From the IMG/VR virus record IMGVR_UViG_2850126897_000005, positions 1 to 64,000 of that record: a DNA stretch of 64,000 nt; one strand, written 5' to 3'. Within the stretch, counting starts at the first letter, position 1, and each line of letters opens with the position of its first letter. This DNA is from a virus. Its lineage: Duplodnaviria; Caudoviricetes. A model generated the notes under the pieces. It saw only the letters and a program-made list of their open reading frames with translations. It did no database searches and was not told the DNA's origin. A program made the translations under genes and the position numbers. Positions 13,570 through 64,000 of this stretch are shown here, in pieces.

Positions 13570-13788
13570 ATGAGTAATAACAGTATTCAACAGCAATTAG
13601 ATGCACAGCATATTTTAATAAAAGCGATTTTTAATGTGTTAACTTCCGAGCAAAAAGAAGAAGTTAAACATCAAATTGGGCATTTAAGTCAGGCTGCAAG
13701 ATATCCTCATATTTTGGAGTCGTTTAACTCAGAAAATGCGATAGAAGAAGCCCAGAATGCCGCATTGGATTTACTTCGTATTATATAA
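13570..13788 (+). CDS. Small cargo protein opposing the pL operon (sieB-like position)
   Basis: 72-aa ORF, opposite orientation, tail overlaps 13781-14095. Confidence 0.55.
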   Translation: MSNNSIQQQLDAQHILIKAIFNVLTSEQKEEVKHQIGHLSQAARYPHILESFNSENAIEEAQNAALDLLRII

Positions 13789-14095: not shown

Positions 14096-14227
14096 ATTTA
14101 TTTCCTATTTTGATTATATTGCCCGTCTTTCCGAACTGTCAGGTCTTGCCTCTGGCTTTGGTCTAAAAATCTTATCTGGTACTACTAAAAATTTGGTTTG
14201 AACACCTGACTAAACACTTGCTGTGTT

Positions 14228-14313
14228 TGTTTAAACAGTAAAACTTATTTAACTGAGATTAAGTTTAATTAATCAAACAGAAGAGTCAAGGAAAAAGTTC
14301 GTAAAATTAAACT
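14228..14313. promoter_or_regulatory. OL operators / pL region
   Basis: Three 18-bp sites of consensus WGTTY-N8-AAACW at 14228, 14262, 14296 (34-bp period); minus-strand TTGACT...TAAACT. Confidence 0.7.
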
Positions 14314-14329
14314 TATTTTCTTTGAGCGT

Positions 14330-14358
14330 AAAAAAACCCACGCACGGTGGGCTTTTCT
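14330..14358. terminator. Bidirectional terminator downstream of cI
   Basis: A-run, CCCAC-GCACG-GTGGG, T-rich tail. Confidence 0.7.
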
Positions 14359-14370
14359 TTAATTGTTGGT

Positions 14371-15027
14371 CTATATCAAATCTTGTTCTATTCGAACACA
14401 CACACCTATAATTTCACAGGCATCATCAAAAGGGATCGGTTTATAATTAGGGTTGATTGGCATTAAATATTCATTGGGCCCATCAACAACATATTGTTTT
14501 ACCGTTGTTTCATTACTATCTTTTAATCGGGCAACGACAATCCGACCATTATAAATATCCTTTTCAGGGTCTACTATGACAATAGCCCCTTCTGGTATTG
14601 AGATGCGACTACGACCAGTTGTATCTACCATTGAATTCCCTACTACTCGCAAGGAAAATGAACTACCTGAAACTTTAGCGGTTGTTTCAATCCACTCGGT
14701 AAACTCGTCAAAACGCTGCTCAATCATGTCTTTCCATCGCCCTGCTTGTACATAGGAAACTAGTGGAACTCTCCTAGTTATATCAGGACCAAGAGTTACA
14801 TTCCCTTTAATTTCCTCAATCAACCCTCCATCTATTAGCCACTTCTCAGTGACTCCAAGTACAGTTGCTAATGATGATAAGAATTTTGCAGACGGCTCGG
14901 TACCACCGTTAACCCACTGGCTGACGGTTCCTTTTGATGCGCCTGTCGCATCCATGATGTGCTTACTTTTTAATTTTAACTCCCGCATCCTCAGGTTAAT
15001 GCGGTCGCTCATTGTTTGTATTGTCAT
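14371..15027 (-). CDS. cI: CI-like repressor with S24 autopeptidase domain
   Basis: HTH (GASKGTVSQW), VQAG cleavage site, GNSM Ser and TVK Lys catalytic residues. Confidence 0.92.
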   Translation of the reverse strand: MTIQTMSDRINLRMRELKLKSKHIMDATGASKGTVSQWVNGGTEPSAKFLSSLATVLGVTEKWLIDGGLIEEIKGNVTLGPDITRRVPLVSYVQAGRWKDMIEQRFDEFTEWIETTAKVSGSSFSLRVVGNSMVDTTGRSRISIPEGAIVIVDPEKDIYNGRIVVARLKDSNETTVKQYVVDGPNEYLMPINPNYKPIPFDDACEIIGVCVRIEQDLI

Positions 15028-46868: not shown

Positions 46869-48386
46869 ATGACAAAAATCTTTAAAATCCCCTTTGCAAC
46901 ACAAGGGGATAGAACTTCTATTCCTGATGATGTGCAAGCCGATGGCGCAGTTTCTTACACGCAAGGCTATAGTTACGATTATGAGCGTGACCAACAAACT
47001 GACCCTGCGGCCAAAGATATCGAACGTGAGAAGATGAACGGGATATTTCACGATATCACGGAAGCGATAGGCGAGTTGCAGAGCTTTGGTTTCCCTAAGT
47101 GGGCGACAGAAGGCAAGCCATACCCAATCCGTGCGATTGTTCATCATAAAAACAAAACGTGGCAGTCGAAGATTGAAAATAACAATGTTGAACCTGTCGC
47201 AGGCACAGCATGGCAGGAACTGAAAGCCGATTTAAGCGCCGGTGATATCAATGTTTATACCAAAACGGAGTCTGACAAGCGTTTCCAGCCATTAGGCAAC
47301 TATCAGCCTGCTGGCTACAGCTACTCTAAAGCAGAATCTGACACCAATTATCAACCCAAAGGTAACTATGCCCCCGCAGGCAACTACGCACTTAAAGGTG
47401 AAAGCTATACGAAGGCAGAAGGGGATACACGATATCAGCCAAAAGGCAGCTATCAGCCATCAGGGGATTATGCCTTAAAAGGAGATAGTTATACCAAGGC
47501 TGAAACTGATAGTAAGTATCAGCCCAAAGGTAGCTATCAAGCGGCGGGCTATAGTTATTCAAAAGCGGAGTCTGATACCAATTACCAACCCAAAGGTAAT
47601 TATGCTCCGGCGGGTAATTATGCACTTAAAGGTGAAAGTTACACCAAGGCCGAAGGGGATACACGATATCAGCCAAAAGGCAGTTATCAACCATCGGGGG
47701 ATTATGCAACAAACACAGCACTTAATAACGGCCTCAATACTAAACTCAATACGAGCAGTGTCGTTCAGGCAACGGGCGCATCAACAACAAATGTGATGAG
47801 CCAAAAAGCCGTCACCGATGCATTACAAAATGCGGTCAATCTTAATACCATTTACCCTATTGGTATTGTTGTGTGGTTTGCACAAAATAAGAACCCCAAT
47901 ACATTATTCCCTGGTACGAAATGGCAATACATCGGCGAAAATAAAACAATTCGTTTAGCTGCTGCAAGTGGTGCGAATGTGTTAACAACCGGTGGTTCGG
48001 ATTCAGTTACTATAGGTAAAGGCCACCTTCCTGCGGTATCACTTAAGTATTCGGGTACAACTGTTTCAAGTGGAGGGCATACCCACACACGTGGGACAAT
48101 GAATATTACGGGGGAGTTTGGATATATCCGGAGTGATAATGCTATTCACTCCATGGCAACAGGCGCTTTTAGTCTTACTAACGGGGGAACTGGCTATAAT
48201 GGTAATAACACTACTGGTGGCTATAAATATGTATTTAACGCATCTAAAACATGGTCAGGTGAAACGTCTAATAGTGGAGCGCATACGCATACCTATTCAG
48301 GTAACACGGAAAACCTCGGTTCAGGAACGGCCTTAACAGTTACCAATGCCTATATCATGCTGATGGGGTGGTATCGATTAAGTTAA
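46869..48386 (+). CDS. Tail fibre protein with YQPKG repeats
   Basis: PFA.QGD N-terminus; tandem repeats; IYPIG...HTH C-terminal domain. Confidence 0.85.
   Translation: MTKIFKIPFATQGDRTSIPDDVQADGAVSYTQGYSYDYERDQQTDPAAKDIEREKMNGIFHDITEAIGELQSFGFPKWATEGKPYPIRAIVHHKNKTWQSKIENNNVEPVAGTAWQELKADLSAGDINVYTKTESDKRFQPLGNYQPAGYSYSKAESDTNYQPKGNYAPAGNYALKGESYTKAEGDTRYQPKGSYQPSGDYALKGDSYTKAETDSKYQPKGSYQAAGYSYSKAESDTNYQPKGNYAPAGNYALKGESYTKAEGDTRYQPKGSYQPSGDYATNTALNNGLNTKLNTSSVVQATGASTTNVMSQKAVTDALQNAVNLNTIYPIGIVVWFAQNKNPNTLFPGTKWQYIGENKTIRLAAASGANVLTTGGSDSVTIGKGHLPAVSLKYSGTTVSSGGHTHTRGTMNITGEFGYIRSDNAIHSMATGAFSLTNGGTGYNGNNTTGGYKYVFNASKTWSGETSNSGAHTHTYSGNTENLGSGTALTVTNAYIMLMGWYRLS
47257..47710 (+). repeat. 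Intragenic tandem repeats in tail fibre (234-bp higher-order period)
   Basis: ACACCAATTA at 47341 recurs as ATACCAATTA at 47575; sub-repeats Y(S/T)KAE.D..YQPKG.Y. Confidence 0.9.
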
Positions 48387-48442
48387 GTGATATTAATAAA
48401 TAAAAGTGTGGCGTGCATTGTAATATGCACACCACACTTAAA

Positions 48443-50065
48443 TTAAAAGATCACTTGTTGTTCAATTGTTTTTTTGTTATCCATATCTACAATGAAATTA
48501 ATGGATTTTATATTTTTAGGTGAAACTGGAATAGTGAAACCAACTAAATTCATACCATAAATAGAGTCTATCTTGTTATTCTCTTCAGTATGTATTTTGT
48601 TTTTGTCATCCATTACTATTATTCTATAGCTTTCATTTGACATTAACTTTTTGTTATCAACAAGTTGTAGGGCTATAGTTGTTCCTTTCAAAAATCTATC
48701 TTTACCTAAGAATAGATTTGAAACATTTGTATTTGTTACATTAGGTAGTGGCAGTTTTATCCCATCTAAAATAACTGCGTAGTTATAGTCTATTTTATAG
48801 GTTTCAATCGGATGGCTAATGTTAAAGTATTCAGCCATTGCATTAGGATTATGATATAAATCCATTTCGTCACCACCTCTGAAAGAGCGTGGATAGTAAT
48901 ACTCGGGTATCTTATCGGTTTTAGAATCACCAATTATTTCTTCGTTTATTGCATAAATTCTTATTTTCTCTTGAGTCGTTATTGCATTATATGAATAGAC
49001 CATTTGAATATATGAAAAAATGAAACCACAAAGAGTTAAAATACCAATAAAATATGTAATTGCGATTCCTCTTTTATTTTTCATACTAAATGCGTATCCA
49101 ATAGAAAAGGAGCATGAAATAACATAAAAAAGGTGAGCGCCACTCAAAGACCTAGTAGGAAATGTTGGGGATGCAACCATGGAAAATATACTTAAAAAGC
49201 CTAATACGATAAACAATAATGAAAGATAAAAGCTTTTTGACTTCTTTTCACCTACATAAGTTAGCAGTAAAAGTAATGAAGCAACTAGTACACCCCACGT
49301 TTTAGTAAATGAATGTGAAAGTTTATCCGATAAAAAATATGTGATTTTTTCTATCGTACTGAGGGAGTAAAAGTCAGTGAAAAGAGCGGCTCGATGAAAA
49401 TTGCCAGGGCTCGAAATCAAAGTTACAAATCCAAGTATAACAAGTACAGATGAAAAGATAATAAGTCTGTTTTTATGTTTAAAAAAAACATAACAGGAGG
49501 TAATTACTGAAATGGCAACTATAATCCAACTCGTATTTTCATTACTGCATCCAGCAAAAAAAGAACTGATTATGAGAGGGATTAGACACTTTTTATCATC
49601 AAGATAACGAAATAAAAAATAAAGATAAATAACAATAAATAAATTTGTGACAAGATAATTTGCTGCACCAACAACCCAAAAAACAATTTGACCAAGAGCT
49701 GGGTTTGTAACCCAGTAAATTGAAAATAAAACAATAAACTGTAAAAAAAATGTTTTTTTACTTGTGTCAGAGTTACTACTTATTTTAGTAATTAAAAAGA
49801 TCATCATTGTTAATACAAATGCAATCATACTATTTTTTAGTATGTTAGAGCCTGATGTAAGAACTAGAGTGCTAAAATAGTCTGATACAAATCTTCCACT
49901 CCATGAAAGGTAGTGAGATACATGAGCAGATAATGAATTTCCTTTAATATAATACACATAGTCATCAGAATGCATAGGTGTATAGTATTCGACTAAAAAA
50001 ATAAGCGAAAAGACAATTAGGACACTTATGTAGCCTAAATTAATACGTTTTAAGTAGTTAGTCAT
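48443..50065 (-). CDS. Serotype-specific glucosyltransferase (GtrC-position, DUF6056-like)
   Basis: Polytopic membrane protein; DDY...W.GR GT-C signature; third gene of gtr operon. Confidence 0.75.
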
Positions 50066-50996
50066 TTTTGTTCTCAATATAATCTGTCTTTTTTAGCAAG
50101 TATCTAGGCCTTGCTTTGCTTTCAGTATAAATACGACCAATATACTCACCGAGTACACCAATACCAATAAGCTGAACTCCACCTAAAAATAGAATAGAAA
50201 CAAGTAATGAAGGATAACCAGGAACAGGATTACCCCAAATTAATTTATCTACCATCATCCAACCACCATAGATAAAAGATGCAAAAGCAACAAATAAACC
50301 AATGTAAGTCCAAACGCGTAATGGAAAAGTAGAAAAACTCGTTATACCTTCTAAGGCTAAGTTCCATAATTTCCAGCCATTGAATTTACTTTCTCCAGCA
50401 GATCTTTCTGCTCTGTTGTATTCAACAACATCAATTTTTCCACCCACCCATGAAAGGATACCTTTCATGAATAAATTACGCTCAGGTAATAATTTTATAT
50501 ATTCGACACTCTGACGAGATATCAACCTAAAATCGCCAACATTTTCTTCAATTTCAGGCGCGCTAATTTTATTATGGAGCTTGTAAAACCATTCAGCTGT
50601 TTTGCGTTTTAACCATGTATCACTAGTACGATTAGCTCTTTTTGCGAGAACAATATCTGCGCCTTGTTGCCATTTATCTATGAGCTGTGGAATAACATCA
50701 ATAGGATCTTGAAGGTCTACATCAATAGGTATTACAGCTTCTCCAGTTGCGTATTCAAGGCCCGCAAACAAAGCCGGTTCCTTACCAAAATTTCGCGTGA
50801 AGTTTAAAGGGAGCACTAAAGGGTCAGCAATAGCTAATGCATTGATAATATTTTCAGTGCTGTCTTTACTTCCATCATTTATGAAGACTATTTCGATATC
50901 ATATTGATTAAGAATCGGGTGTTCTCTTACTGACTTATAAAATATAGGGATAGCTTCTTCTTCGTTATAAACGGGCACTACTAATGATATTTTCAT
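50058..50996 (-). CDS. gtrB: Bactoprenol glucosyltransferase
   Basis: [13 protein letters not shown]; NDGS.D; RNFGKE; DVDLQDP. Confidence 0.92.
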
Positions 50997-51367
50997 TGTG
51001 GAGTATCTCTGAAAACAAAGATTTTGGAGTAAAGAAAACCTAATACGAGGCTAATCGAAGAAAAAATTATTAAAGTTGCGATAGGGGGGAATCGTAGCTG
51101 GTCTGAAACATAACCAGTCAAATAACTTAATAGCCCCATAAATAAGGTAAATGATAAGTATCGTGCTGTAGTCGCTTTAGCTTTGAACGTGAATTTTGCA
51201 TTAGCAAAAAAGGAAAAACTGACAGCAGCTATGAAGCCTATTAAGTTAGCTATAGCTTGAGAGGTTGAAAGGAACACTGTCAGTAGCCCAAAAATGGACC
51301 AATGTATAAGAGTGTTTAAAATTCCAACCGAAAAGTATTTAGTGAATAACTTAATCATTTCAATCAT
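50993..51367 (-). CDS. gtrA: GtrA flippase
   Basis: Four TM; [21 protein letters not shown]. Confidence 0.9.
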
Positions 51368-51587
51368 TCGTATTGAGAAGAGAATAAGTAATTTAGTATA
51401 CCTGAATATACCTACTGATGCAGCAAACTGATAAGGAGAGTTTATGTGAAATGTCGTGTTAGTCTTACTTTATTCTCCACCAAATTGTGAGGCGGAAAAG
51501 CAAGCCTATATTATAAAATAGGGGAAATGGGATTTTACTACAGTACCACTACGAACTATTTATATTTTGGTAGGTGTACTCAGAAAG

Positions 51588-51617
51588 CAATAAAAAAGCC
51601 CACCGAAGTGAGCTTTT
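51588..51617 (-). terminator. Element-supplied terminator downstream of the ssrA 3' copy
   Basis: Minus strand AGCTCAC-TTCG-GTGGGCT followed by T-run. Confidence 0.7.
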
Positions 51618-51744
51618 AGTAACTTTCAAATGCGCGTGCATTTCACGTGCACTTTCTAGTCTTAATGTTGCCAGTGTCTAGTCCAACTGATTTTGCTAAC
51701 TTCCTGTTTTTAAACCTGTTGTCCTATCACTGACCCACCAAATT

Positions 51745-51788
51745 TGGTGGGCTGGCGGGAGTTGAACCCGCGTCCGAAATTTCTACAT
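51745..51788 (-). repeat. att site: ssrA 3'-end copy with 1-nt deletion
   Basis: Minus strand TGTAGAAATTTCGGACGCGGGTTCAACTCCCGCCAGC-CCACCA. Confidence 0.92.
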
Positions 51789-51901
51789 TCTTTATTGTAT
51801 GTTGTGAATTTATTTATTTAATATAATTTTCAATTGGTTGCGTTACATTGGTGGACATTGATTTACAACTGTTATAAAACTATATGGACACATACTGGAC
51901 A

Positions 51902-52957
51902 TTAAAGGTATGCGATTGGCTCCCCTGTGTGATTTTTAATAAGACCATAATCAAAATTATTTGTTATGAGGGTCACATCATTATACATATATTGTTCTAC
52001 CCAAAAGAAATCTATACTCTTTATTGGTTCTTTATTAACAAACATAAAAATATCAAGAGTAATAGAATGCAAAGATTTTAATAAACTTTTCAGAAAAATA
52101 TTATCTAATAATTTGGTGTTAAATAGTGAATAGTGATAATTTGATGATTTATCAGAGGAATAAGATAATTTCGATATATCTATTTCAAGTGCTTCCATTA
52201 GCCTAATTATAGTTGATTCTAGGGATAAAATGAAATCTTTATATTTACTAGGTTCTTCATATGACGTTGGTATGATGTATTTACCAAATATAATATTAAT
52301 ATCTACCCATGACTGGTTTATTTCATCAAAATAATGAGTGGATATTCCAGATAATTCACTGGTTAACCCTCTTGAATCATTGGAAAAAATAAACATTTTA
52401 TTGTATAGATAATATGGGTTCTTAATATTAATTAGTGTTTTTATTTCTAATTCATTCGGGGTTTCTTTTTTATTATTTAGTGGGTGTTTTTTTACAATAG
52501 TAATTATTTCATGTTTTAAGTTTTTCTCAAAGTACTCTATAGCTGATTTTTTATGGTTTAAATAAAAGTCAATGCTATTTTTAGACTGGGTTTGGCTTAT
52601 TTGCTCATTTGTTTGAATTGTTCTATGTATGTTATTAACAATAGCAGTAAACGGTATTGAGAGCGACAACAAACCTAGAGGGAACGCATTGTTAACAATG
52701 AAATCTTTGTAATTATCTCCTCCTAACTGTATATCAAAAGGGTACCATGAAAAAATACCAAAATATAAAAATGAAAATATGGGGATAATTATAGCAAGCC
52801 AAAATAATGATTGTTGCGTTAACGGCTTTGAGTCCATCCCAAAGGGTTTGGCAACATATGCAACTGTCATAATTGTAGCAATAGCATGAAAGTATATAAA
52901 AATTGCTAAAAAGGAGTCATGAAATTTTTCTACCCAAAGAGAAAAAAAAGCATTCAT
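51902..52957 (-). CDS. Membrane-anchored cargo protein, NIHRTIQT family (paralogue 1)
   Basis: About 3 TM; LFWLAIIIPIFSF...PLGLLSLS...NNIHRTIQT; starts 2 bp after int stop. Confidence 0.75.
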   Translation of the reverse strand: MNAFFSLWVEKFHDSFLAIFIYFHAIATIMTVAYVAKPFGMDSKPLTQQSLFWLAIIIPIFSFLYFGIFSWYPFDIQLGGDNYKDFIVNNAFPLGLLSLSIPFTAIVNNIHRTIQTNEQISQTQSKNSIDFYLNHKKSAIEYFEKNLKHEIITIVKKHPLNNKKETPNELEIKTLINIKNPYYLYNKMFIFSNDSRGLTSELSGISTHYFDEINQSWVDINIIFGKYIIPTSYEEPSKYKDFILSLESTIIRLMEALEIDISKLSYSSDKSSNYHYSLFNTKLLDNIFLKSLLKSLHSITLDIFMFVNKEPIKSIDFFWVEQYMYNDVTLITNNFDYGLIKNHTGEPIAYL

Positions 52958-52959
52958 CT

Positions 52960-53976
52960 TTAATCTTCCATAAAATTCAAAGGGTTTTTAGTCACTGCAT
53001 CTTCTAAATGACTTGGTGCAAAGTGTGCGTAAATCATCGTCATTTTGATATCAGAGTGTCCGAGAATATCTCTTAAAACTAAAATATTGCCGCCGTTCAT
53101 CATAAAATGGCTGGCGAAAGTATGGCGTAAAACGTGGGTGCATTGTCCTTCAGGTAATTCAATTCCTGCTTTATTGACAGTGCGCTCGAATGTTTTACGG
53201 CAAGGGGTGAATAGCTTCCCACGCTTCTTAGGAATTTCATCATATAATTCCTTTGAAATCGGAACGGTACGCACCTTTTTACTTTTGGTATTTCTGTAGG
53301 TAATACGGTAGGGCGTGACTTGGCTACTTTCTAAATTTTCGGCTTCACTCCAACGAGCTCCTGTTGCCAGGCAAATTTTGGAGATCATCAAAACGCTTTC
53401 GCTATTAGATTCTGAAAGTGCTTCAAGTAATAATTTAATTTCATCTTGATATAAAAACGTCACCATACTTTCATCAACTTTGAAAGTAGGTAGCCCAGCT
53501 AATGGGTTGGCCAATGACCAATGACCTAATTTTTTTAGCGTACCAAAAACCGCAGATAAATTACGTTGCTCATGATTTACAGTAACGGGCTTAATTGCCA
53601 TTAATCGACCGTTAATATCAGGAATTTCACCCTTTAGGCGTCCTTCACGATAAAGGCTAAAATCAGAAGCGGTTAACTGGGATGCAATAGGATCACCAAG
53701 CCCTGCACAAATGGCCTTGAGTTTTGACATCATTCTGTCAGCATCGGTTAACGTTCTGCCATATAAATCATGCCACTGCGTGATTAAATCCGATAATCGC
53801 CTGTTATCCTGTTTTTCACCTAGCCACGGTTTATCTTCCATTTGTCCCAGGATATATTTTTCATAGGATAAGGCTTCGCCTTTGGTCACGAACTTTTTGC
53901 GAATACGTTTACCATTGACGCCATTCGGTCTTAAATCACACAGCCATTCGCCAGACTCAATTTTTCTTACAGTCAT
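52960..53976 (-). CDS. int: P2-family tyrosine integrase
   Basis: TGARWSEA; HVLRHTFASHF; LGH; YAH. Confidence 0.93.
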   Translation of the reverse strand: MTVRKIESGEWLCDLRPNGVNGKRIRKKFVTKGEALSYEKYILGQMEDKPWLGEKQDNRRLSDLITQWHDLYGRTLTDADRMMSKLKAICAGLGDPIASQLTASDFSLYREGRLKGEIPDINGRLMAIKPVTVNHEQRNLSAVFGTLKKLGHWSLANPLAGLPTFKVDESMVTFLYQDEIKLLLEALSESNSESVLMISKICLATGARWSEAENLESSQVTPYRITYRNTKSKKVRTVPISKELYDEIPKKRGKLFTPCRKTFERTVNKAGIELPEGQCTHVLRHTFASHFMMNGGNILVLRDILGHSDIKMTMIYAHFAPSHLEDAVTKNPLNFMED

Positions 53977-53984
53977 CTCTATAT

Positions 53985-54596
53985 CTATTGGTTTTCAATA
54001 ATCGTCACTACACGACCTAACACGGTTAAGTCTTCTAAATCACAATCAAATGGAATTCCAACGCCTGAAACACGGACTTTTTTAATTGGAATTCTTGTTA
54101 GCTCACGAACGCTAATTTTCCCCTCAATATTGACAAGCCATTTGCCATCAAAAACATCTGCAAATTTTTTATCGACGATTGAATAGGTATCGCCATCTTG
54201 AACACTCATTGGTTCATCAGGGAGTGGGGCGGTATTTTTAAACATGACCTTATCGAACATCACGCTACTGGCTGGTATTAATTCACCATTCATTAAACGG
54301 AAATTAGACAGTTTGAGGATATCTATTTTTACATTTTCAAAAGGTTTTCCTTTACCAAATGTAAGCCATTCAATATTTGCACCAGTTTCTATAGTACAAC
54401 GAACTACCATATCAGCAGGGAAAACAGCACGTTTGTAGCGCCCTGAAATTCCACTAGACCCCATATTGAAATGCTCAGCCATCTGTAATTTTGATGAAAA
54501 ACCATAGGCTTCCATGATTCTATCTAAAACGCTTGCATTATCAGGGCATGAAATAAAATCAAATGTCTCGCACATCGAAAACTCCAAATCTCTCAC
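53985..54596 (-). CDS. cI: 186-type CI repressor
   Basis: VLDRI.EAYGF..K..MAEH HTH; C-terminal DG.WLV.IEG domain. Confidence 0.85.
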   Translation of the reverse strand: MRDLEFSMCETFDFISCPDNASVLDRIMEAYGFSSKLQMAEHFNMGSSGISGRYKRAVFPADMVVRCTIETGANIEWLTFGKGKPFENVKIDILKLSNFRLMNGELIPASSVMFDKVMFKNTAPLPDEPMSVQDGDTYSIVDKKFADVFDGKWLVNIEGKISVRELTRIPIKKVRVSGVGIPFDCDLEDLTVLGRVVTIIENQ

Positions 54597-54622
54597 TTCG
54601 TGAGATTAATTCACGAATCGAA

Positions 54623-54651
54623 TTGACATTTCACGATTCGCGAGTTAAATT
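54623..54651 (+). promoter_or_regulatory. Lytic promoter pR of P2-like prophage
   Basis: TTGACA-17 bp-TAAATT, overlapped by TTCACGAWTCG repeats (probable operators). Confidence 0.65.
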
Positions 54652-54722
54652 CTCTCATGTTGATAGATAACAAAGGTTGGCATTAATTCGCACTTAATGC
54701 GCATAACAGGAGATTTTGCCTC

Positions 54723-54914
54723 ATGAAACAAAATACCGCAACAGTTTCACATTCTGAGAATCGTTGGGTTCCTTTAAAGACGTTCTGTGAACGTACAGAT
54801 ATCAAAATTCGCACAGCGAGATACTACATTCATACTGGAAAGCTAAAAATTAAACCTAAGACAAAACCAAATGAGCGTGTCTTTGTTGACTGGTTTGCTT
54901 GGAATAATGGCTAG
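54723..54914 (+). CDS. Apl/Cox-like excisionase-repressor
   Basis: Small wHTH divergent from cI. Confidence 0.7.
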   Translation: MKQNTATVSHSENRWVPLKTFCERTDIKIRTARYYIHTGKLKIKPKTKPNERVFVDWFAWNNG

Positions 54915-54975
54915 TATTGTTCGCGTTTAGTGAATATTGCTAAACGAATAGTGAAATAATTAACAGGAAAACACC

Positions 54976-55485
54976 ATGTTTGATTATCAGGTTTCCAAAC
55001 AAGCACACTTTGATAATGCCTGTCGGGCATTTGCCACATCACACAAAGGTGAGCTTGTTCAGATTGCGAATGATATCGGCATGAACCCACAAATGTTACG
55101 CAATAAGCTAAACCCCGAACAGCCGCACTTAGTTACCTGTGCAGACTTGTTTAAGCTAACCGATGCCACCAAAGACCCATCATTGTTAGATGGTGTACTG
55201 GAGCAACTGAATTGCCAGCCATCTGTCCCGATGACAGATATTGGTGATAACAATGTGCAAGGTTATCTATTAGGGGCAACCGCTGAGGTCGGTAAATTAG
55301 CCAATCATGTGGTTGATGGCGGCCATATCAACAGTATACGGTCAGCAGAAATTAAGCAAAGCGTGAACAATGCAATCCGTTGTTTAGCCTTAGTTGGCGT
55401 GACTATCTCAGAACGTTTTCATTCAAACCCTGCATTAGTATCCGCGATTGATACGGTAGTAGGCTTTGGCCAATCAATGGTGTGA
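54976..55485 (+). CDS. cII: 186-type CII activator
   Basis: MFDYQVSKQAHFDNACRAF; LRNKLNPEQPH. Confidence 0.88.
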   Translation: MFDYQVSKQAHFDNACRAFATSHKGELVQIANDIGMNPQMLRNKLNPEQPHLVTCADLFKLTDATKDPSLLDGVLEQLNCQPSVPMTDIGDNNVQGYLLGATAEVGKLANHVVDGGHINSIRSAEIKQSVNNAIRCLALVGVTISERFHSNPALVSAIDTVVGFGQSMV

Positions 55486-55492
55486 GGACAAT

Positions 55493-55627
55493 ATGACTCA
55501 AGCACACAAGCAGCAATATAAATACAAAGTTACAGGCGATTCATTTAAAGCAAAATCTAACAATGATTTAAAAGTGATCATCCCTGTAATTGTTTTTGCC
55601 ACTATCTATTTACTAGCAAGAATATAG
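55493..55627 (+). CDS. 44-aa protein with C-terminal TM (not in track)
   Basis: GAGG RBS; ...VIIPVIVFATIYLLARI*. Confidence 0.5.
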   Translation: MTQAHKQQYKYKVTGDSFKAKSNNDLKVIIPVIVFATIYLLARI

Positions 55628-55987
55628 GTGGAAATTATGTATCAGAACCCAATAGAGCTAGAACAACGCGCCCAATATATGCAGTTAGACCAGCGTATTA
55701 ATGGGCTTAATAAAACATCAGAAATTAAATCAAAACACTTTGGTTTAAAAAATGATGAGCTGAAATATTTTATAAAAGAAATGCGCGACCGTTTTAATGA
55801 GCATCACGAAGAAAATAAAAAGTTTTTAGGCGTAATTTTCTATATGGCGAATATTGATAAAAGCCGCCACGATTGCCAATTTGAAGATCTCACTACGAAA
55901 GAGATTTTTAATATCGTCAAAGCCATTAATCACATAAAAGCGATTAGTGCATTTTTACCAAAAAACTTAGCTTTACCTCTTAATTAA
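55628..55987 (+). CDS. P2-family early protein (DUF5347-like)
   Basis: Conserved position; FYMANI motif. Confidence 0.65.
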   Translation: MEIMYQNPIELEQRAQYMQLDQRINGLNKTSEIKSKHFGLKNDELKYFIKEMRDRFNEHHEENKKFLGVIFYMANIDKSRHDCQFEDLTTKEIFNIVKAINHIKAISAFLPKNLALPLN

Positions 55988-56057
55988 ATAACCGACAAAA
56001 ATTAATGACATTGATTTGTCAGGGTTTTTTACACGCTAAATTTAGGAAAACAGATAA

Positions 56058-56309
56058 ATGAATATACCAGAACCGATGTTTACGCCTGTATATGATTTAG
56101 GTAATGGCGAAGATACCACGATGCTTGCTGTCATAAAGCAGAACCGTGAAGATGAAAAAAATACACGTTCGATCATTTTCGCTTCTCGCTTACGTCGCCT
56201 TTCCAATCAAGTCATGAAAGACAAGCTGGATTATGCGCAAATAGCTCAACTGTTAGAGAGTGAAGCCAATCACATCGAACACCAGGCGCAAGAACTGAAT
56301 TATGTTTGA
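56058..56309 (+). CDS. DUF2732-like protein
   Basis: R..E.K.....F.SRL..L...ELL..EA. Confidence 0.65.
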   Translation: MNIPEPMFTPVYDLGNGEDTTMLAVIKQNREDEKNTRSIIFASRLRRLSNQVMKDKLDYAQIAQLLESEANHIEHQAQELNYV

Positions 56310-58359
56310 AGCGCAGGAACACAATAGCGACGTATATATTTCAATACGTCGCCATCAAGAAGCCAATAAGCCAGAGTTGCCGAAATCAGCGACTCTGGCT
56401 GAACGCATTATGTGGGATGCCAATAGAGATGATGCCGAGTGGCGTCATGAAATTATTGCGCACGTCCCCGATTTCCTTGCCATCTATTTTGCTACCAAAT
56501 ACGCCAAAATCTTTAAAAAATCAGGTCGTCGTCGTGCCAATGAATTTTTACGCAAAACCGCTAAGAATGTATTGCCACGATTTGAACGTGTGATGAAACA
56601 GTATGAGTTTAAACACTATGCATCGGGTAACGTGCCATTTCCTTTTATCGAACAACTGGAAAATATTGCGCAGTTAGATAGAACGGTTATCAAATCACTA
56701 GCCAGTGATATTGCTAGCTTTATGAGTGAAAACTACCAATCAGCAACAGAGCAATACGCGAACAACGACCCACAAAATGAATATGAAGCCCGTGAGCGTT
56801 TAGATAAAACCTATTCATTTATCGCTAAATTAACGCTGCAATCAGGCACACAGCCCCCTTATTGGCAACAATTCATGCATGGCCGCAAGAAACCAACCGA
56901 CGATCAGCTATGTGCTGCACTGCTACGCATGTTTGATGCTGCGTGGTGGTACCGTCGTTTAAAACGTTTGTGCGATGTAAAACGTGAACACCTCGCCATT
57001 GCGATTGGTCAGGTACAAAAATCAGCATCGCCTTATGTCTCTAAAACGACATTGCATCGATGGGTAGAACAAAAGCGCGCTAACTGGCAATACCTAAAAG
57101 ATTTTGAGTTAGAAGATGAGGACGGTAACCGTTCTGATTTATCAAAAATGGTATTGGGTAGCGTGGCAAATCCTGCCGTTCGTCGTTGCGAATTGATGGC
57201 GCGAATGCGTGGCTTTGAGGATTTAGCAGATGAAATGGGTTGTGTGGGCGAGTTCTATACCATCACCGCACCTTCAAAATACCATTCAGCCTACCAAGCA
57301 GGCGGCTTTGTCACTAATTGGATGGGAAATGATCCGCGCGCAACACAAAAGTACCTTTGTGGCGTTTGGCAAAAAATCAGAGCGGCTTACGCAAGAGCTG
57401 GCATTCGTGTGTTTGGCTTTCGCGTTGTTGAACCCCACCACGATGGCACACCACATTGGCATATGTTGTTATTTGTTCGCCCTGAACAGGTAGACGAGCT
57501 GCGCGATATCTTTTGTTATTACGCTCGGTTGGAAGATTCGGAAGAACTGCAATCTTATAAAGCGCTAAAAGCCCGTTTTCATGTAGAGCCTATCGATAAA
57601 GAGAAAGGCAGTGCCACAGGTTATATCGCTAAGTACATCAGTAAGAATATTGATGGCTATGCTATGGATGATGAAATTGATGAAGAAACAGGACAGAAAG
57701 CCAAAGAAATGGCGCGTTCGGTTTCGGCTTGGGCATCACATCATAAAATTAGACAGTTTCAACAAATAGGCGGTGCACCTGTGTCTGTATGGCGTGAATT
57801 ACGTCGTATGGGTGATGACGTCGAAGCATCAACAGGTTTAGATGTTGAGTTTGCCGAGGTTCACAAAGCGGCAGATACAAGCAATTGGAGCGAGTACACG
57901 AAATTACAAGGTGGTGCATTTGTACGACGAGCTGACCTTATTGCGCGCCTTTGGTATGAGCGTGAAGAAAAGACCAACGCATACGGTGAGCCCGTCGATT
58001 GCATCAAGGGGGTTTACTGTACTTTGGTGGGTAACGACTCCCCAATTATCACACGCATTAAGAACTGGCAGATTGTGCCGAAGTTAGCCGAAGCGACAGC
58101 GGAGGCTGGTTTTGATGGCGCGATTAGCGCCCCTTGGAGTTCTGTCAATAACTGTACGGAGGTTCTCGGTACGGTTAAAGATAGAAATGTGGCCATCAAT
58201 AATATTGTGGATGCAGCCAAGTCGATTGGGATAATTTTTGACCCTGATAAGGATAAACCAATGTTGCTTTCATTATGGAAAGGAGCTGTTTATACAGAGA
58301 ATGGCCAAAGCGTGAGGTTTCACGGGAATGGCCATATTCAGAGGGTAGCGACTAAGTAA
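56302..58359 (+). CDS. A: Replication endonuclease gpA
   Basis: FYTITAPSKYH; VEPHHDGTPHWH; GYIAKYISKNIDG. Confidence 0.93.
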   Translation: MFEAQEHNSDVYISIRRHQEANKPELPKSATLAERIMWDANRDDAEWRHEIIAHVPDFLAIYFATKYAKIFKKSGRRRANEFLRKTAKNVLPRFERVMKQYEFKHYASGNVPFPFIEQLENIAQLDRTVIKSLASDIASFMSENYQSATEQYANNDPQNEYEARERLDKTYSFIAKLTLQSGTQPPYWQQFMHGRKKPTDDQLCAALLRMFDAAWWYRRLKRLCDVKREHLAIAIGQVQKSASPYVSKTTLHRWVEQKRANWQYLKDFELEDEDGNRSDLSKMVLGSVANPAVRRCELMARMRGFEDLADEMGCVGEFYTITAPSKYHSAYQAGGFVTNWMGNDPRATQKYLCGVWQKIRAAYARAGIRVFGFRVVEPHHDGTPHWHMLLFVRPEQVDELRDIFCYYARLEDSEELQSYKALKARFHVEPIDKEKGSATGYIAKYISKNIDGYAMDDEIDEETGQKAKEMARSVSAWASHHKIRQFQQIGGAPVSVWRELRRMGDDVEASTGLDVEFAEVHKAADTSNWSEYTKLQGGAFVRRADLIARLWYEREEKTNAYGEPVDCIKGVYCTLVGNDSPIITRIKNWQIVPKLAEATAEAGFDGAISAPWSSVNNCTEVLGTVKDRNVAINNIVDAAKSIGIIFDPDKDKPMLLSLWKGAVYTENGQSVRFHGNGHIQRVATK

Positions 58360-58413
58360 TAGTAAAGTAGAAGCATATAAGATAATGGTTAATAAACTAT
58401 ATTACGTAGTTTA

Positions 58414-59514
58414 TTAGCCATAGTGAAATTCAAAATATTCATTAAGGGCATTTTTAGATTCTATTTTTATTTCTTTTAATTCTATGCAAAGATTAAATAA
58501 TTTAGTTATTAAAATGTTTTTTGTTTCAATGAAATAACTAGGAGGTGGTTCGTTAATTATATCCAAAATACTATTATATACTAACACTAGCATTCCTATA
58601 TAATTACTAACCGCAGTCATGAGATAATATATATTTTTATAATTCAAATAATCCATTGTTAAAGCCATTAATTTCTCTTCCTCAGGGTCAATACGTTCAA
58701 TTTCATTTATTCCCTCATCTTTTAATGATTTAATTACTGTATCCAAATAATATTCTAGTTGGCTATCTTTGTTTTGTAAGTAACATAGAGTTATTATTTC
58801 TTTTATTTTCCTGGATAATTTATTGTTAATATCCACTATGCGTATTTTTTCTTTATTACAATGAATAAAACCACTGTATATTTGTTGAATAATTTTATCC
58901 ACTTCAACGTTTAAAGAAAAGAAATTGTTTTTTATTTTTGAAATAAATTCACGATCTACGGAATTATTTGCTCCTAATACAGGGTTACTTTTCTTATATA
59001 TTTCGGAGTACAATGTGTTAGGTGATAATATAGATATTTCCAATTCTGTTTCTGGTTGTTTTTTTATAACTGATTTAAACTCATCAATAATAAATTTATG
59101 ATGAGCATAAAAACTATCTGAAATATTTTTTTGCTCAGAAACGGAAATTTGTTTTTCAGTTTGTATCGTTCTATGAATATTCGAGACTATAACTCCAAAG
59201 ATCGGAGATAGTGCCAGTACACCTAATGGGAGCTTACTTTCATCAAAAAAAACACTAAATCCAGCTGAGTCAAAATTTATCTCGTTTGAAAGAAATACAA
59301 AATATTCAAGGTAAAAGAAAACACCGATAGGCACTATAATTCCTAACCAAAACAAGTATTGCTTATCTAAGCTATCTGATTTTATCTCAAAAGAAACCTC
59401 TCTAGTTCCTTTTAAGGATGCATCAGTTACTAAATAAGATATGGCAAAAAGTACTGCTATTGTGACTAGTAGCATAATCACTGGAATTTGTTCAATAGGT
59501 GATGTTCCCTTCAT
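58414..59514 (-). CDS. Membrane-anchored cargo protein, NIHRTIQT family (paralogue 2)
   Basis: LFWLGIIVPI...PLGVLALSP...SNIHRTIQT. Confidence 0.78.
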   Translation of the reverse strand: MKGTSPIEQIPVIMLLVTIAVLFAISYLVTDASLKGTREVSFEIKSDSLDKQYLFWLGIIVPIGVFFYLEYFVFLSNEINFDSAGFSVFFDESKLPLGVLALSPIFGVIVSNIHRTIQTEKQISVSEQKNISDSFYAHHKFIIDEFKSVIKKQPETELEISILSPNTLYSEIYKKSNPVLGANNSVDREFISKIKNNFFSLNVEVDKIIQQIYSGFIHCNKEKIRIVDINNKLSRKIKEIITLCYLQNKDSQLEYYLDTVIKSLKDEGINEIERIDPEEEKLMALTMDYLNYKNIYYLMTAVSNYIGMLVLVYNSILDIINEPPPSYFIETKNILITKLFNLCIELKEIKIESKNALNEYFEFHYG

Positions 59515-60530
59515 TTTACATCCTTGTTATATTTTACTGATGCTTGCCCTAACTGTTTTCTAATCATATATTTACCATAAAAATTTTGAGTAAACTTATT
59601 TTCGATTGAAAAATCATACCCTATAGAATAGAGTAATTTTTCTATGAATTTATCAATTTCTCGTAGTGCTTCCCATATATTATGCATGATATTTAATTGA
59701 TGATAAGTTTCACCCTTATCATAATCATAAGTAAAATCTAAGTATTTGTAATTCTCTTGCTCTAAACCAAAGTGCTCAAATAGATAAATTATGCTATCGT
59801 GTATGTCATAAATAATTTTGTTTATTCTTGTTTCATTTCCTACATACCTTATTATTGTTTCATCTGAGTTAATATGAAAATTCATCAGGTAACTCGTGGA
59901 ATGTTTGTATAAATCACCATATAGCTTATCTAGTTCAGTAATGAAATTATTAGATATGGCATTATTAGCACCTGCTAGAACAGATGACTCTTTGAAAATA
60001 TCTCTATATAATTTCATTCTGCTTTTTATTGTATATTCACATGATAAAAACCCAACTTTAAATTCTTTTAATTCATCACATATTATTTTCATGTGGGAGT
60101 TAAAAGAATCAAAGTTGTTTTTTAATTTTGTTATTTTTATTTGATCTTCCGTTCTTTCAATTTGTTCTTTTGTTTGTATAGTTCTATGAATATTTGATAC
60201 GAATACCCCAAATATTGGAGAGAATGCTAGAATACCCAAAGGTAATTTACTTATTTCAAGAAATTTATTATATCCTTGCCAAGAGCTATCTAATTCAGTT
60301 CCATACCAAGCAACAATCCCAAATAAAATAAAAGAGAATATTGGTAATAATATAGCTATCCAAAATAAATTTTGTTTATCTAAACTATCAGGTGTTAATT
60401 TGACCATCTCCCTAGCTCTTTTACAAAAAAGAATGAGAAGAATAGTTGGTGGAAAAATACACACGATGAGTATGAACCACCAATTTAACTGCGTTTGTTT
60501 TTTATTTTTTTTATTTTGTTCAATATCCAT
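59511..60530 (-). CDS. Membrane-anchored cargo protein, NIHRTIQT family (paralogue 3)
   Basis: LFWIAILLPIFSF...PLGILAFSP...SNIHRTIQT; ATGA-coupled to paralogue 2; start 60530 or 60554. Confidence 0.78.
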   Translation of the reverse strand: MDIEQNKKNKKQTQLNWWFILIVCIFPPTILLILFCKRAREMVKLTPDSLDKQNLFWIAILLPIFSFILFGIVAWYGTELDSSWQGYNKFLEISKLPLGILAFSPIFGVFVSNIHRTIQTKEQIERTEDQIKITKLKNNFDSFNSHMKIICDELKEFKVGFLSCEYTIKSRMKLYRDIFKESSVLAGANNAISNNFITELDKLYGDLYKHSTSYLMNFHINSDETIIRYVGNETRINKIIYDIHDSIIYLFEHFGLEQENYKYLDFTYDYDKGETYHQLNIMHNIWEALREIDKFIEKLLYSIGYDFSIENKFTQNFYGKYMIRKQLGQASVKYNKDVK

Positions 60531-60610
60531 ACCACCCCCTATCAAAATTTGCACAGAATTCTAATCGATCAAAAAATTTTAAACTACCTCTTTCATACTA
60601 GGTAAATTTA

Positions 60611-60626
60611 CTGTATAAATAACCAG
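60611..60626. promoter_or_regulatory. LexA (SOS) box
   Basis: TA-CTGTATAAATAACCAG-TA fits CTG-N10-CAG. Confidence 0.85.
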
Positions 60627-60657
60627 TAAAGTGATTTTATGTAAGAGGATCATGTAG

Positions 60658-60864
60658 ATGCTAGAGGCGTCAGTGGCGTTGGAACGGATAGAAATCATCG
60701 CCAGGTTTGGGAGTTTGGATTTATGTAATGATAAAGAGCGCCAAGTTGTATTAGCGCTGATTATGGAAATCGCAGAGGACACACGCAGAATTGAGAAACA
60801 TAAAATAAAAAAGTCACTCGAAAGTGACCAACGGAAAGCAGCTTTAAACGGGGCTGGACTTTAA
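60658..60864 (+). CDS. tum: Tum-like SOS-inducible antirepressor
   Basis: LERIEIIAR...C...ERQVVLALI.EIA resembles phage 186 Tum; LexA box upstream. Confidence 0.75.
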   Translation: MLEASVALERIEIIARFGSLDLCNDKERQVVLALIMEIAEDTRRIEKHKIKKSLESDQRKAALNGAGL

Positions 60865-61107
60865 CAAGTCTAGCGCCATTTGGCGCTGTTCAGGGTTTAA
60901 ATTCTGTATCATCGAACCAATCATTTTATTACTTTTCGCGCTTGGGCTAATCGTATGGTCAAACGTCAGGCTTAATACATAAGTATGGCCGCATTCGACG
61001 TCACTACATGCACAATAGAGATCTGAAATTTCACGATGCTTTCTATTTGATTTACGAATAATCGCCTTTTCCCCACACTCAGGGCAGAATATTTTTAATA
61101 CTCGCAT
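60844..61107 (-). CDS. ogr: Ogr/Delta zinc-finger late activator
   Basis: CPECG...LYCAC...CGHTY. Confidence 0.88.
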   Translation of the reverse strand: MRVLKIFCPECGEKAIIRKSNRKHREISDLYCACSDVECGHTYVLSLTFDHTISPSAKSNKMIGSMIQNLNPEQRQMALDLLKSSPV

Positions 61108-61217
61108 GTTCCAAATCTCCGCTTGATAATGACCCCGTAATTTTAGCTTATTTTTACACATTTTTCATTTCCCTATGAACATTAAATTCCGTAAACATCA
61201 TTAATTTTGCGTTATTT

Positions 61218-62243
61218 TTAATTAAATTGGTGGCTATCTTCTTGAAAAGTGATCTTTAAATGATCGGGCACCTCACCATCATTATTTATCGCGTTTGCAA
61301 ACATGCGCTGAACAGGAATAATTTCATCTTGTCGGTACGCTTCACGGGCATTGCGCGGGTCACCTAAGCCGCCAACATTGCCAGGAATAATCCCTGCCAA
61401 CCCCGCAGGGAAACGATGTGCGGTTAAAATATCCTGCGCACTGATGTTTTTCACATTACTAAATTCATCATTGGCCGAAATATCACCAACAGGAATAAAC
61501 TTGATACCGTCCGCATCCCCATTGGGAATATGCACAAACATGGTTTCAAAGTTACCAATCCCTTTGCTTTGCTCTAATTTTTTGGTGATCATCACTTCCA
61601 CTTCATCGGTGAGCATTGGATCATTACAAAAAATCATTCCCCCAGTATGTGCCCCGTTGTGGTAGTAACGACGACGAAAGATGGTGGCCTCACTGTTTAA
61701 CATGGCCGCATGAATGCCCCCGATATAATCAGGAATGCCATAAACTTGCTGTTGGGGGTCATACTGTTTTATGTAAATCACATCGTCGGGGGTATACACC
61801 ATCGGCTCACCTTCTTGCAAAATCACAAAATCATCGTTTTTGCGACGACGCATAAACAGCGCTGGCAGCACATACAGCCCAACCACTTCCCCGTAATAAT
61901 TGCGCAGCTTTAAGATGGGCGTATCACCAAACACAATATAATCCAACACGCTGGCACGCAGCTCCTGATGCGTGAGGCCACCGCCTTGGTAATCCGATAA
62001 CACCATATTGGCACGCGCATGAATAACGCCCCCGTGTTGGCCATTTAAATTCACCAATTGCGCCAAGGCGGTGCGGTCTATCGGTAAGCTGTAATGGTCA
62101 TAATCATTGTCATACCAAATGTTTTGGTATTCCGTATGGGTGGTTAAAATGGGTTCTGGCTTGCCTAATGTGATGATGTTCATCGATTTTTGGCTCGTAG
62201 TTTGCTTTTGTGCGGTTTTCCGTAACTTTTTCTTACTCATCAT
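61218..62243 (-). CDS. Q: P2-type portal protein gpQ
   Basis: YDPQQQVYGIPDY; FRRRYYHNGAH; AHRFPAGLAG. Confidence 0.92.
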   Translation of the reverse strand: MMSKKKLRKTAQKQTTSQKSMNIITLGKPEPILTTHTEYQNIWYDNDYDHYSLPIDRTALAQLVNLNGQHGGVIHARANMVLSDYQGGGLTHQELRASVLDYIVFGDTPILKLRNYYGEVVGLYVLPALFMRRRKNDDFVILQEGEPMVYTPDDVIYIKQYDPQQQVYGIPDYIGGIHAAMLNSEATIFRRRYYHNGAHTGGMIFCNDPMLTDEVEVMITKKLEQSKGIGNFETMFVHIPNGDADGIKFIPVGDISANDEFSNVKNISAQDILTAHRFPAGLAGIIPGNVGGLGDPRNAREAYRQDEIIPVQRMFANAINNDGEVPDHLKITFQEDSHQFN

Positions 62244-64000
62244 GCAGCCTTTTGAAATTTATATTTAGATTTACGCTGTCTTTCATTGTTTAGCGGTTCG
62301 TTGGCCACGGCGTGTGAGGTGGCAAAAAACACGTCTGCGTGACCCGTTTCCTTACTGCGATCCGCGATAAAGGTCATTGAGCCCCCTTTACCCGTGGTGG
62401 TGTGCCGAATGGCTAAGAAGCTGGCCATAATTTCTTTTTGCTCGACGTCCCAGGCAATGCGCTGCTCATCCACCAAATCAATCATTTTGAGCACCAGTTG
62501 AGTTTTGGTGTTTTGGCTGTAGTGAATGGCGGTAGTGACGCGCGGAGCAAAGTCGGCCACCATCTCATATACCCCGTGACCAATCCCTGTGGTATCGATG
62601 CCGATGTGGGTAAAACGGTATTGGCTGTACAGGTCTTGGATTTGTTTGGCTTGGTGTTTCCAGCTCATGCCTTGCCAATAAAAAGTGGCGAGGACGCGAA
62701 AATATTCCCCTGCCACCAAAGGCGGTGCAACTATCACAAAGGTGGACGTATCCCCTGAACGTGCAGGGTCGTAACCGCCCCAAACCTCTTTATCACCAAA
62801 CGGCCGTGGGGCATTAATATCGTGATCATCCCAAACACCAATATCGATGGCACATTTTTCAAGGTCGTTATATTTGAAAACCGACGCACCACTGTCGACA
62901 AACACGCACATATACAGCATATTAAAGGTGTCTTTGTTATAGCGGTTGCGCAGTTTTTCAATGGATGCCAGGTTAAACCCGTTTCGGACGGCATCTTCAA
63001 TTGTAATGACATATCGCCACTGGCCATCGGGGCAATCACGGCCACCGTCTTGCATCTCTTCAAAGCTTGGGAATTCCACATTCTTACGTTTGGCATCACT
63101 GCCGCGCCACTCGTCACCTGTCCAAAATGGGTAAGCAGGATGGGTTTTGGCGCTGGGCGTGGAAAAATAAGTGGTGCGCCATTTATCGTGGGTCGCCATC
63201 GCAGAGGCCACTTCATTCAGGCGTTTAAAATCAGGTACCCAAAAGTATTCATCGCAATACAAATGGCCACTGTATGACTGTGCGGTGTTTTTATTGGTGG
63301 ATAAGAAGCGCAGCTCTGCGCCATTGCTTAAACGGATAGGGTTACCCGTGAGCGTGACACCAAAGAATTTGTCCGCGATATTGACGATATAAGAACGGAA
63401 CACCTCCGCTTGTGGTCGTGAAGCGGATAAAAAGATTTGCGGGTCGCCAGTGAGTACCGCGTCTTCAAACGCTTCAAAGGCAAAATACCAGGTCGCCCCA
63501 ATTTGGCGTGACTTGAGGATATTGCGAATGACCTTTTTAATATTAATGCGCAGGTGTTTTTGGTAGCCAAATAGCATTTCATCCGCGAATTTTTGAAAGT
63601 CTTCAGGGGTCAGTTCAGAGATATCATTTTTCTTATAACGACGTTTTTTCTTACTTTCGCCATCGTCGCTTGTACTGTATTCCCCGCCAGACTCCGCTTG
63701 CGCTTTGATTTCAGCCAGCTTTTCTTTGTGCTTATTGGCCTGCGCCATCAATTTGACGTGATGGGCTATCAGTCTGTCGAGCTCCTCCAGTTCAAGTTCC
63801 GTTTTTTTATTGCGCTCCGATAACAGCGCAATGCGCCGGTTAATTGCCTCTAACACGCTCTCATGGTTGAGCATATCCGCCCAGCACCACTTTTGCGCCC
63901 AATAGTAGACAATCCGCCTGTTAGGCAGGTTAAGTTCCTCCGCGATTTCAGCAGGGGTATAGCGTCGCAAGTAAAGTGACTTGGCGACCTGTATTTTTGC
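62240..64000 (-). CDS. P: P2-type terminase ATPase gpP (5' end beyond window)
   Basis: LKSRQIGATW; YCDEYFW; GHADVFFA; frame open to window edge. Confidence 0.92.
   Translation of the reverse strand, partial: AKIQVAKSLYLRRYTPAEIAEELNLPNRRIVYYWAQKWCWADMLNHESVLEAINRRIALLSERNKKTELELEELDRLIAHHVKLMAQANKHKEKLAEIKAQAESGGEYSTSDDGESKKKRRYKKNDISELTPEDFQKFADEMLFGYQKHLRINIKKVIRNILKSRQIGATWYFAFEAFEDAVLTGDPQIFLSASRPQAEVFRSYIVNIADKFFGVTLTGNPIRLSNGAELRFLSTNKNTAQSYSGHLYCDEYFWVPDFKRLNEVASAMATHDKWRTTYFSTPSAKTHPAYPFWTGDEWRGSDAKRKNVEFPSFEEMQDGGRDCPDGQWRYVITIEDAVRNGFNLASIEKLRNRYNKDTFNMLYMCVFVDSGASVFKYNDLEKCAIDIGVWDDHDINAPRPFGDKEVWGGYDPARSGDTSTFVIVAPPLVAGEYFRVLATFYWQGMSWKHQAKQIQDLYSQYRFTHIGIDTTGIGHGVYEMVADFAPRVTTAIHYSQNTKTQLVLKMIDLVDEQRIAWDVEQKEIMASFLAIRHTTTGKGGSMTFIADRSKETGHADVFFATSHAVANEPLNNERQRKSKYKFQKAA

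Follow-up and report, generated by a model that had tools for sequence, protein, structure and literature searches.

Three paralogous genes in a 186/P2-type prophage

We analyzed a window of 64,000 nucleotides (nt), positions 1 to 64,000 of the IMG/VR provirus record IMGVR_UViG_2850126897_000005 (Caudoviricetes; 83,415 bp in full), the right third of which is a 186/P2-type prophage. Our subject is a set of three paralogous genes in this prophage that encode membrane proteins with the motif NIHRTIQT, here termed copy A (51902-52957, 351 amino acids (aa)), copy B (58414-59514, 366 aa) and copy C (59511-60530, 339 aa). They had been singled out in an earlier reading made from the sequence alone (the sequence-only reading) as diverged members of one family. 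The three open reading frames (ORFs) proved to be real: all lie on the minus strand, encode 339-366 aa and contain NIHRTIQT together with the other listed motifs. Their guanine-cytosine (GC) content is 25-30%, against 42-47% in the phage core. Close homologues carry Providencia names, and the host was read as Providencia-like.

The prophage order includes cI, int, cII, genes with DUF5347 and DUF2732, gpA, ogr, the portal gene Q and the terminase. Leftwards of int lies copy A (GC ~25-30%), directly 3′ of the integrase gene and, as already noted in the earlier reading, 2 nt past its stop codon (TAA-ag-ATG). It thereby occupies the same position in a lysogenic operon as orf69 in the cI-int-orf69 operon of phage 186. 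The first gene of the operon is that for a 186-type CI repressor (cI, 53985-54596, minus strand; Pfam Phage_CI_repr and Phage_CI_C, 186 annotation), followed by that for a 186-type tyrosine integrase (int, 52960-53976, minus strand; Pfam Int_N and Phage_integrase). Further left, a 3′ fragment of ssrA, encoding transfer-messenger RNA (tmRNA), forms the att junction (51745-51790, minus strand; Rfam tmRNA match at 51745-51834 and megablast matches to tmRNA ends). Beyond it, a terminator-like hairpin (51594-51617, minus strand) is a candidate end of the lysogenic transcript, by analogy with phage 186, where the operon is annotated to end in a terminator beyond attP. Because cI-int-orf69 is the lysogenic operon of phage 186, copy A is very probably expressed in lysogens.

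Copies B and C lie between gpA (replication protein A, 56302-58359, plus strand; Pfam Phage_GPA, E 2e-109) and ogr (Ogr/Delta late activator, 60844-61161, minus strand; Pfam Ogr_Delta), on the strand opposite to gpA. The proposed ATGA coupling, in which the stop codon of C overlaps the start codon of B, was confirmed. The start of C was likewise correctly placed at the ATG at 60530, since P0135, a homologue with 86% identity, has its start at this point and a ribosome site (GGGGGTGG) lies upstream. The pair had been described as lying between gpA and the portal gene. This is accurate for the borders of the interval, gpA on the left and portal gpQ on the right (61218-62243, minus strand; Pfam Phage_portal), but ogr, a Tum-like ORF of 68 aa (60658-60864, plus strand; BLASTP match to the N-terminus of 186 Tum, E 2e-8) and a consensus LexA (SOS) box also intervene between C and Q. 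The box (TACTG-N10-CAGTA, 60609-60628), recognized by reading the sequence and by analogy with 186 p95/LexA, is placed between two divergently oriented genes, 30 nt upstream of the Tum-like ORF and, on the other strand, 79 nt upstream of copy C. The arrangement suggests that the Tum-like ORF encodes a putative SOS-inducible antirepressor much shorter than 186 Tum.

A conserved membrane and stalk module with a divergent distal half

The three proteins share a membrane and stalk module of ~160 aa that includes the invariant NIHRTIQT motif, followed by ~150 distal aa that could not be aligned in any of the three pairwise comparisons. This supports the earlier description of a conserved module with divergent distal halves. 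Over residues 35-194, copies B and C have 43% identity (E 4e-36). All three copies belong to phrog_17460, a PHROGs cluster label with no function assigned there, with matches far beyond chance (E 2.3e-38, 4e-34 and 9.9e-28). The three window copies had no match in Pfam, NCBIfam or PADLOC; in PADLOC-DB v2 they hit 0 families at E<=1, and the hotspot copies of two sister prophages, L040 and L121, hit none at E<=0.01.

To define the family, we searched 1.84 billion cluster representatives (50% identity) with a profile; 1142 matched at E<=0.001, of which 259 reached E<=1e-30. Members mostly measure ~320-400 aa, and in their source databases all are called 'hypothetical protein'. Most named members are from Enterobacterales (Providencia, Morganella, Proteus, E. 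coli, Klebsiella, Salmonella and Citrobacter), and a few belong to Pseudomonas or other Gammaproteobacteria. A literature search found no paper describing the NIHRTIQT family. Fused or longer forms were not found either, an observation that counts as weak evidence. The conserved module is also matched weakly (36% identity over 67 aa, E 4e-4) by a sequence encoded at 972-1172 of the 8.5-kb Vibrio phage VALG_phi6 (MN719123 / NC_073759).

Among 69 members, 11 positions are invariant (P59, F86, L97, N109, H111, R112, T113, Q115, Q119, D130 and H135 in copy A numbering) and four more are near-invariant (K126, N127, K137 and Y185). H111, Q115 and Q119 are spaced i, i+4 and i+8 and would therefore lie on one face of a helix. 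The mean frequency of the top residue is 0.62-0.77 in the second and third transmembrane (TM) helices and the stalk versus 0.26 in the distal part. Because profile matches span nearly the full length of the proteins, the distal halves are, at profile level, homologous across the family, rapidly evolving rather than swapped for foreign domains.

AlphaFold models of copies A and B were confident (predicted local distance difference test (pLDDT) of 88 and 86, respectively) and had the same N-terminal layout, in which helix 1 and TM2 are followed by two short helices and by a helix of 46-47 residues that combines TM3 with the stalk and bears the motif. A β-hairpin and a short helix with the conserved Tyr follow the stalk. 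The module had been predicted to contain about three TM segments; B and C indeed each have three hydrophobic segments, but in copy A only two exceed the hydropathy threshold, the third being placed by the AlphaFold model. The predicted distal domains are unlike each other, mixed α/β in A and a bundle of long helices in B. With Foldseek, model A had no match in the PDB or BFVD at E<=0.001 and model B none in the PDB. VIA wide returned only generic helical matches for model A (Z<=7.2, residues 14-129); for model B, the distal bundle resembled FAT-like four-helix bundles at a Z of 7.9, below the level that is meaningful for helical bundles. An atlas search with the distal domain of B gave no usable match.

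A hypervariable gene coupled to the integrase

Genomic context was studied in the best 80 IMG/VR loci. In 77 of these, the gene order is cI-int-member: a family member stands just 3′ of an int of the 186 type, in most cases where the provirus record terminates. The same placement was seen in four of six species genomes and in four of six metagenome loci, the latter being distant. Measured from the int stop, the member starts at -23 to +11 nt in 73 of 74 loci, a 4-nt overlap being the commonest arrangement. In an unbiased sample that started instead from the 80 closest int relatives, family members directly followed int in 25 of the 72 records whose sequence extended far enough for a judgement. 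Where two integrases were 95-98% identical, the adjoining members had a median identity of 26%, and they were <50% identical in 64% of such pairs. A sharp divergence break thus coincides with the int stop codon.

A 2026 survey of P2-like prophages identified the gpA-gpQ interval as the main defense hotspot and int-att as a minor one with 3% of systems (PMC13586616). Both positions occupied in the window are therefore recognized P2 defense hotspots, which bears out and extends what had been said of the interval that holds B and C.

Several other genes occupy or adjoin the int-att slot or its surroundings. The second commonest int-att occupant, at 16 loci, is a 395-aa family without a Pfam match (L151:4022-5209, plus strand), in which a RES-like R...Y..G.P.LY...S pattern was discerned by eye only; another is a 514-aa family. 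At three loci (L180:4028-5785, minus strand, and two more), the slot encodes a 585-aa protein with a P-loop motif, as read from its sequence, and a cytidine-deaminase domain, resembling the known dCTP-deaminase anti-phage defense. In prophage L121, whose integrase is only 51% identical to that of the window, a 319-aa gene between cI and int (13489-14448, plus strand) matches a PADLOC TIR effector model (E 1.5e-9). A pore-forming bacteriocin gene of the pyocin-S/colicin type was located ~1 kb beyond a 186-type int (L146:5074-6774, minus strand). A second integrase gene, whose product has an Arm-DNA-bind_3 N-terminus and is P4-type by sequence reading, lies ~1.4 kb beyond the 186-type int at 16 loci (L147:5353-6549, plus strand), which suggests that a further element has integrated there in tandem, at the site used by the first. 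On the far side of the att junction in the window, a cassette for O-antigen glucosylation (gtrA, gtrB and a gtrC-like DUF6056 gene; 48443-51367, minus strand) forms the terminus of a neighboring lambda-like prophage, with the tail fibre gene of that prophage beyond it. Because the cassette abuts the same ssrA fragment, the 186/P2-type and lambda-like prophages share one att junction.

The hotspot copies form a separate clade

In the family tree, the hotspot copies (B and C of the window and those of L040 and L121) form one clade apart from the int-adjacent copies, within which B and C are not sisters. The three window genes, treated as one modular system in the sequence-only reading, thus do not constitute a single system: A belongs to int-adjacent clades and B and C to the separate hotspot clade. 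A search of IMG/VR for close relatives of B and C yielded only L121, a sister prophage with core genes 98-100% identical to those of the window prophage and the same leader peptide start. There, an unrelated protein of 267 aa with one TM helix takes the place of C and is followed by a B-like gene 48% identical to B. Prophage L040 combines copy A at 99% identity with a single hotspot copy, and L090 contains two family copies in tandem after int. Multiple copies per prophage therefore recur; B and C are not conserved together as a two-gene system, given the replacement of C in L121 and the single hotspot copy in L040. Hetero-oligomerization of B and C, which had been raised as a possibility, would therefore not be required.

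Remote homology to the retron Ec48 effector

The sequence-only reading had noted that the layout loosely recalls the membrane effector of retron Ec48 (type IV). This effector is required for abortive defense, which depends on its TM helices (bioRxiv 10.1101/2020.06.21.156273). We compared four profiles using hhalign: the family (A2), relatives with an HRSEQT motif (A5), four true Ec48 effectors (A4) and a merged, mostly NIHRTIQT-type profile (A9). The A5 relatives, drawn from a sample of 401 genomes of one GTDB order, are weaker matches in which HRSEQT or HRSAQT replaces HRTIQT (loci L016, L018, L019, L026 and others). They share with the family the H-R-[ST]-x-Q-T..QI stripe and a similar size, differ in the motif variant and in being sited outside 186-type prophage slots, and resemble Ec48 effectors more closely than the window copies do.

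The profiles connect in steps. A2 matched A5 with a probability of 99.6% (E 1.5e-23, 190 columns) and A5 matched A4 with 95.3% (E 2.3e-8), while A9 matched A4 with 90.5% (E 1.4e-6) over 130 columns from TM2 to the (L/W)Y..F..S..G unit. Single intermediates matched both the family profile A2 and the NCBIfam model retron_Ec48_2TM (NF038235), namely G127 (4.4e-11 and 1.1e-8, respectively) and G238 (4.1e-8 and 5e-7). For one intermediate, NF038235 gave 5e-9 and 36 bits, with a cut-off of 65, and PADLOC 2TM_IV matched two intermediates (7.8e-9 and 4.9e-5); the true effector L030 scores 2.4e-80. All four true effectors (L030-L033) are well above the cut-off, and each follows an ORF of 319-421 aa, confirmed as a reverse transcriptase (RT; RVT_1) for L030. 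Independently, a language-model protein atlas placed 'retron Ec48 family effector' among the nearest clusters (score 0.90). Together, the hhalign chain, the intermediates and the PADLOC and NCBIfam models raise the resemblance from mere layout to real remote homology: the membrane and stalk module of the family is, by profile comparison, remotely homologous to the Ec48 effector.

What is shared can be delimited. The Ec48/Retron-Eco6 2TM effector (NF038235; PDLC02912 2TM_IV; Pfam 38 PF28197) has, like the window family, a two-TM hairpin, then a stalk with N..H/..H..F..Y and the (L/W)Y..F..S..G unit, and these parts align over 110-130 columns. Unlike Ec48 effectors, the window proteins are 100-130 aa longer with an extra, fast-evolving distal domain, and most family members possess an additional N-terminal hydrophobic helix. 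Profile searches with A2, A4 and A5 against the PDB yielded compositional helical matches alone, so no Ec48 effector structure was available for comparison.

The earlier statement that the window lacks an RT can be upheld for the entire 83-kb record, as PF00078 was unmatched in all 83,415 bp. An Rfam scan of 48000-64000 at E<=0.1 detected only the tmRNA fragment and a chance microRNA match; no retron-specific msr/msd search was run. A relation to putative abortive-infection (Abi) proteins, also suggested previously, was not detected, with hhalign probabilities of 3% (A5) and 1% (A2) against eight putAbiC proteins. The corresponding atlas lead, putAbiC (PF16872, score 0.78), was rejected at these probabilities of 1-3%; Pfam scans likewise gave no match to this domain.

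Membrane coiled-coil proteins of an 'FNWK' type are encoded beside family members in two settings that are unrelated to each other: a P2 hotspot (L040:658-2382, minus strand) and an HRSEQT relative (L035:2083-3069, minus strand). They have a common N-terminal NP....F..SW..FNW motif (E ~1e-7), had no meaningful Pfam or PADLOC match and may represent a partner family.

Discussion

We infer an anti-phage function for the three copies. The explanation we favor, with a probability of roughly 0.55, is that they are stand-alone, RT-less membrane proteins of anti-phage defense that pair an Ec48-type module with a fast-evolving distal sensor, are expressed from the prophage and are stacked as three alleles in one element. 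Each copy would be an inner-membrane protein with two conserved TM helices, preceded by an N-terminal one that is less conserved. Its long stalk helix would carry the invariant H-R-T-x-Q-T polar stripe at its membrane-proximal end and lead through the small conserved β-hairpin/helix unit to the distal domain of ~150 aa. The proteins would be made in the lysogen, copy A from the cI-int transcript. The distal domain is proposed to sense a cue of a superinfecting phage and the stalk to relay it to the membrane module, which might then disturb the membrane or block infection, so that the infected cell would no longer support phage growth, whether by abortive infection or exclusion. Ec48 itself is triggered by the RecBCD inhibitors lambda Gam and T7 gp5.9. 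The three different distal domains probably cover different phages, and B and C may or may not co-assemble. By analogy, the copies can be likened to lambda RexB and other membrane defense genes of repressor operons, which are also co-transcribed with the repressor in lysogens and for which action at the membrane has been proposed; RexB needs RexA, whereas the window genes have no conserved partner.

A number of observations weigh against this explanation. The direct comparison of A2 with A4 was weak (probability 7%), though in identical register, and the Ec48 link consequently rests on intermediates and the merged profile. The window copies matched neither NF038235 nor PADLOC 2TM_IV, even at E<=1, and the family-defining HRTxQT motif is absent from Ec48 effectors. 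For these reasons, and because they are longer and reside in a provirus without an RT, the window proteins are not members of the Ec48 effector family. No fold match of models A and B in Foldseek or VIA wide names a sensor or a pore. We assume a cytoplasmic distal domain from the positively charged stalk and the Ec48 analogy; the loop charges are nearly neutral, and copy C is positive on both sides of TM1 (helix 1). A simple consensus scan revealed no convincing promoter for the B/C pair. That the distal domain senses and that the output is membrane damage are accordingly proposals, as is the topology.

We consider it unlikely that the copies are instead superinfection-exclusion proteins, which reside in the inner membrane and block the entry of incoming phage DNA without killing the cell. 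Examples are P22 SieA, T4 Imm and HK97 gp15. Membrane proteins made from a lysogenic operon would suit such a role, prophage genes co-transcribed with the repressor are generally known as classic exclusion genes, and phage 186 has in its equivalent A-cos region Orf97, annotated as blocking 186 infection when expressed from a plasmid. Orf97 is, however, unrelated to the family, having been rejected as a relative at an hhalign probability of 0.4%. Furthermore, the variability resides in the large distal domain, while the TM2-TM3 loop is comparatively conserved (top-residue frequency of 0.58 versus 0.26 in the distal part), and the homologous Ec48 effector acts by cell suicide. Highly doubtful, in our view, is a non-defensive role as lysogenic-conversion membrane proteins acting in host physiology, envelope stress or prophage maintenance or addiction. 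It would agree with the lack of a match between any defense hidden Markov model and the window copies and with the presence in the int-att slot of other genes without an assigned role. It fits poorly with a divergence break at the int stop, a pattern typical of arms-race genes, and with the occupation of two published defense hotspots by homologues of a defense effector.

Within the favored reading of stand-alone defense proteins, a narrower proposal makes B and C the two obligate subunits of a hetero-oligomeric system, with copy A as a separate homo-oligomeric version. The overlapping stop and start codons, the common clade and tandem pairs elsewhere, such as the two copies after int in L090, speak in its favor. 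We regard it as rather improbable given that B and C are not sister sequences, that most family members occur singly, that L040 has one hotspot copy and that L121 keeps the leader yet encodes the 267-aa, 1-TM protein where C would be.

New in this analysis are the int-following synteny, the filling of about one-third of slots, the contrast in divergence between int and member, the separate hotspot clade, the Ec48 link through HRSEQT intermediates and the RT-less nature of the provirus. A broader view, which we put forward tentatively and hold with less assurance than the reading of the three copies themselves, is that the family represents a large class of single-gene membrane abortive-infection proteins with their own sensor and an Ec48-type killing module, a free-living sibling or source of the retron type IV effector. 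One allele would be translationally tied to int, and further alleles in the gpA-gpQ hotspot, possibly in mixed oligomers, would widen the phage range. If the defense function is true, a widespread family of 1142 cluster representatives that PADLOC, Pfam and NCBIfam miss would join the defense catalogue. A relative that works without an RT and multicopy single-stranded DNA, by means of its own variable domain, would mark the membrane module as an autonomous killing unit that retrons recruited and would have implications for the mechanism and control of the Ec48 effector. The tight coupling to int, combined with extreme allelic divergence, makes this prophage gene a clean natural case in which to study diversifying selection.

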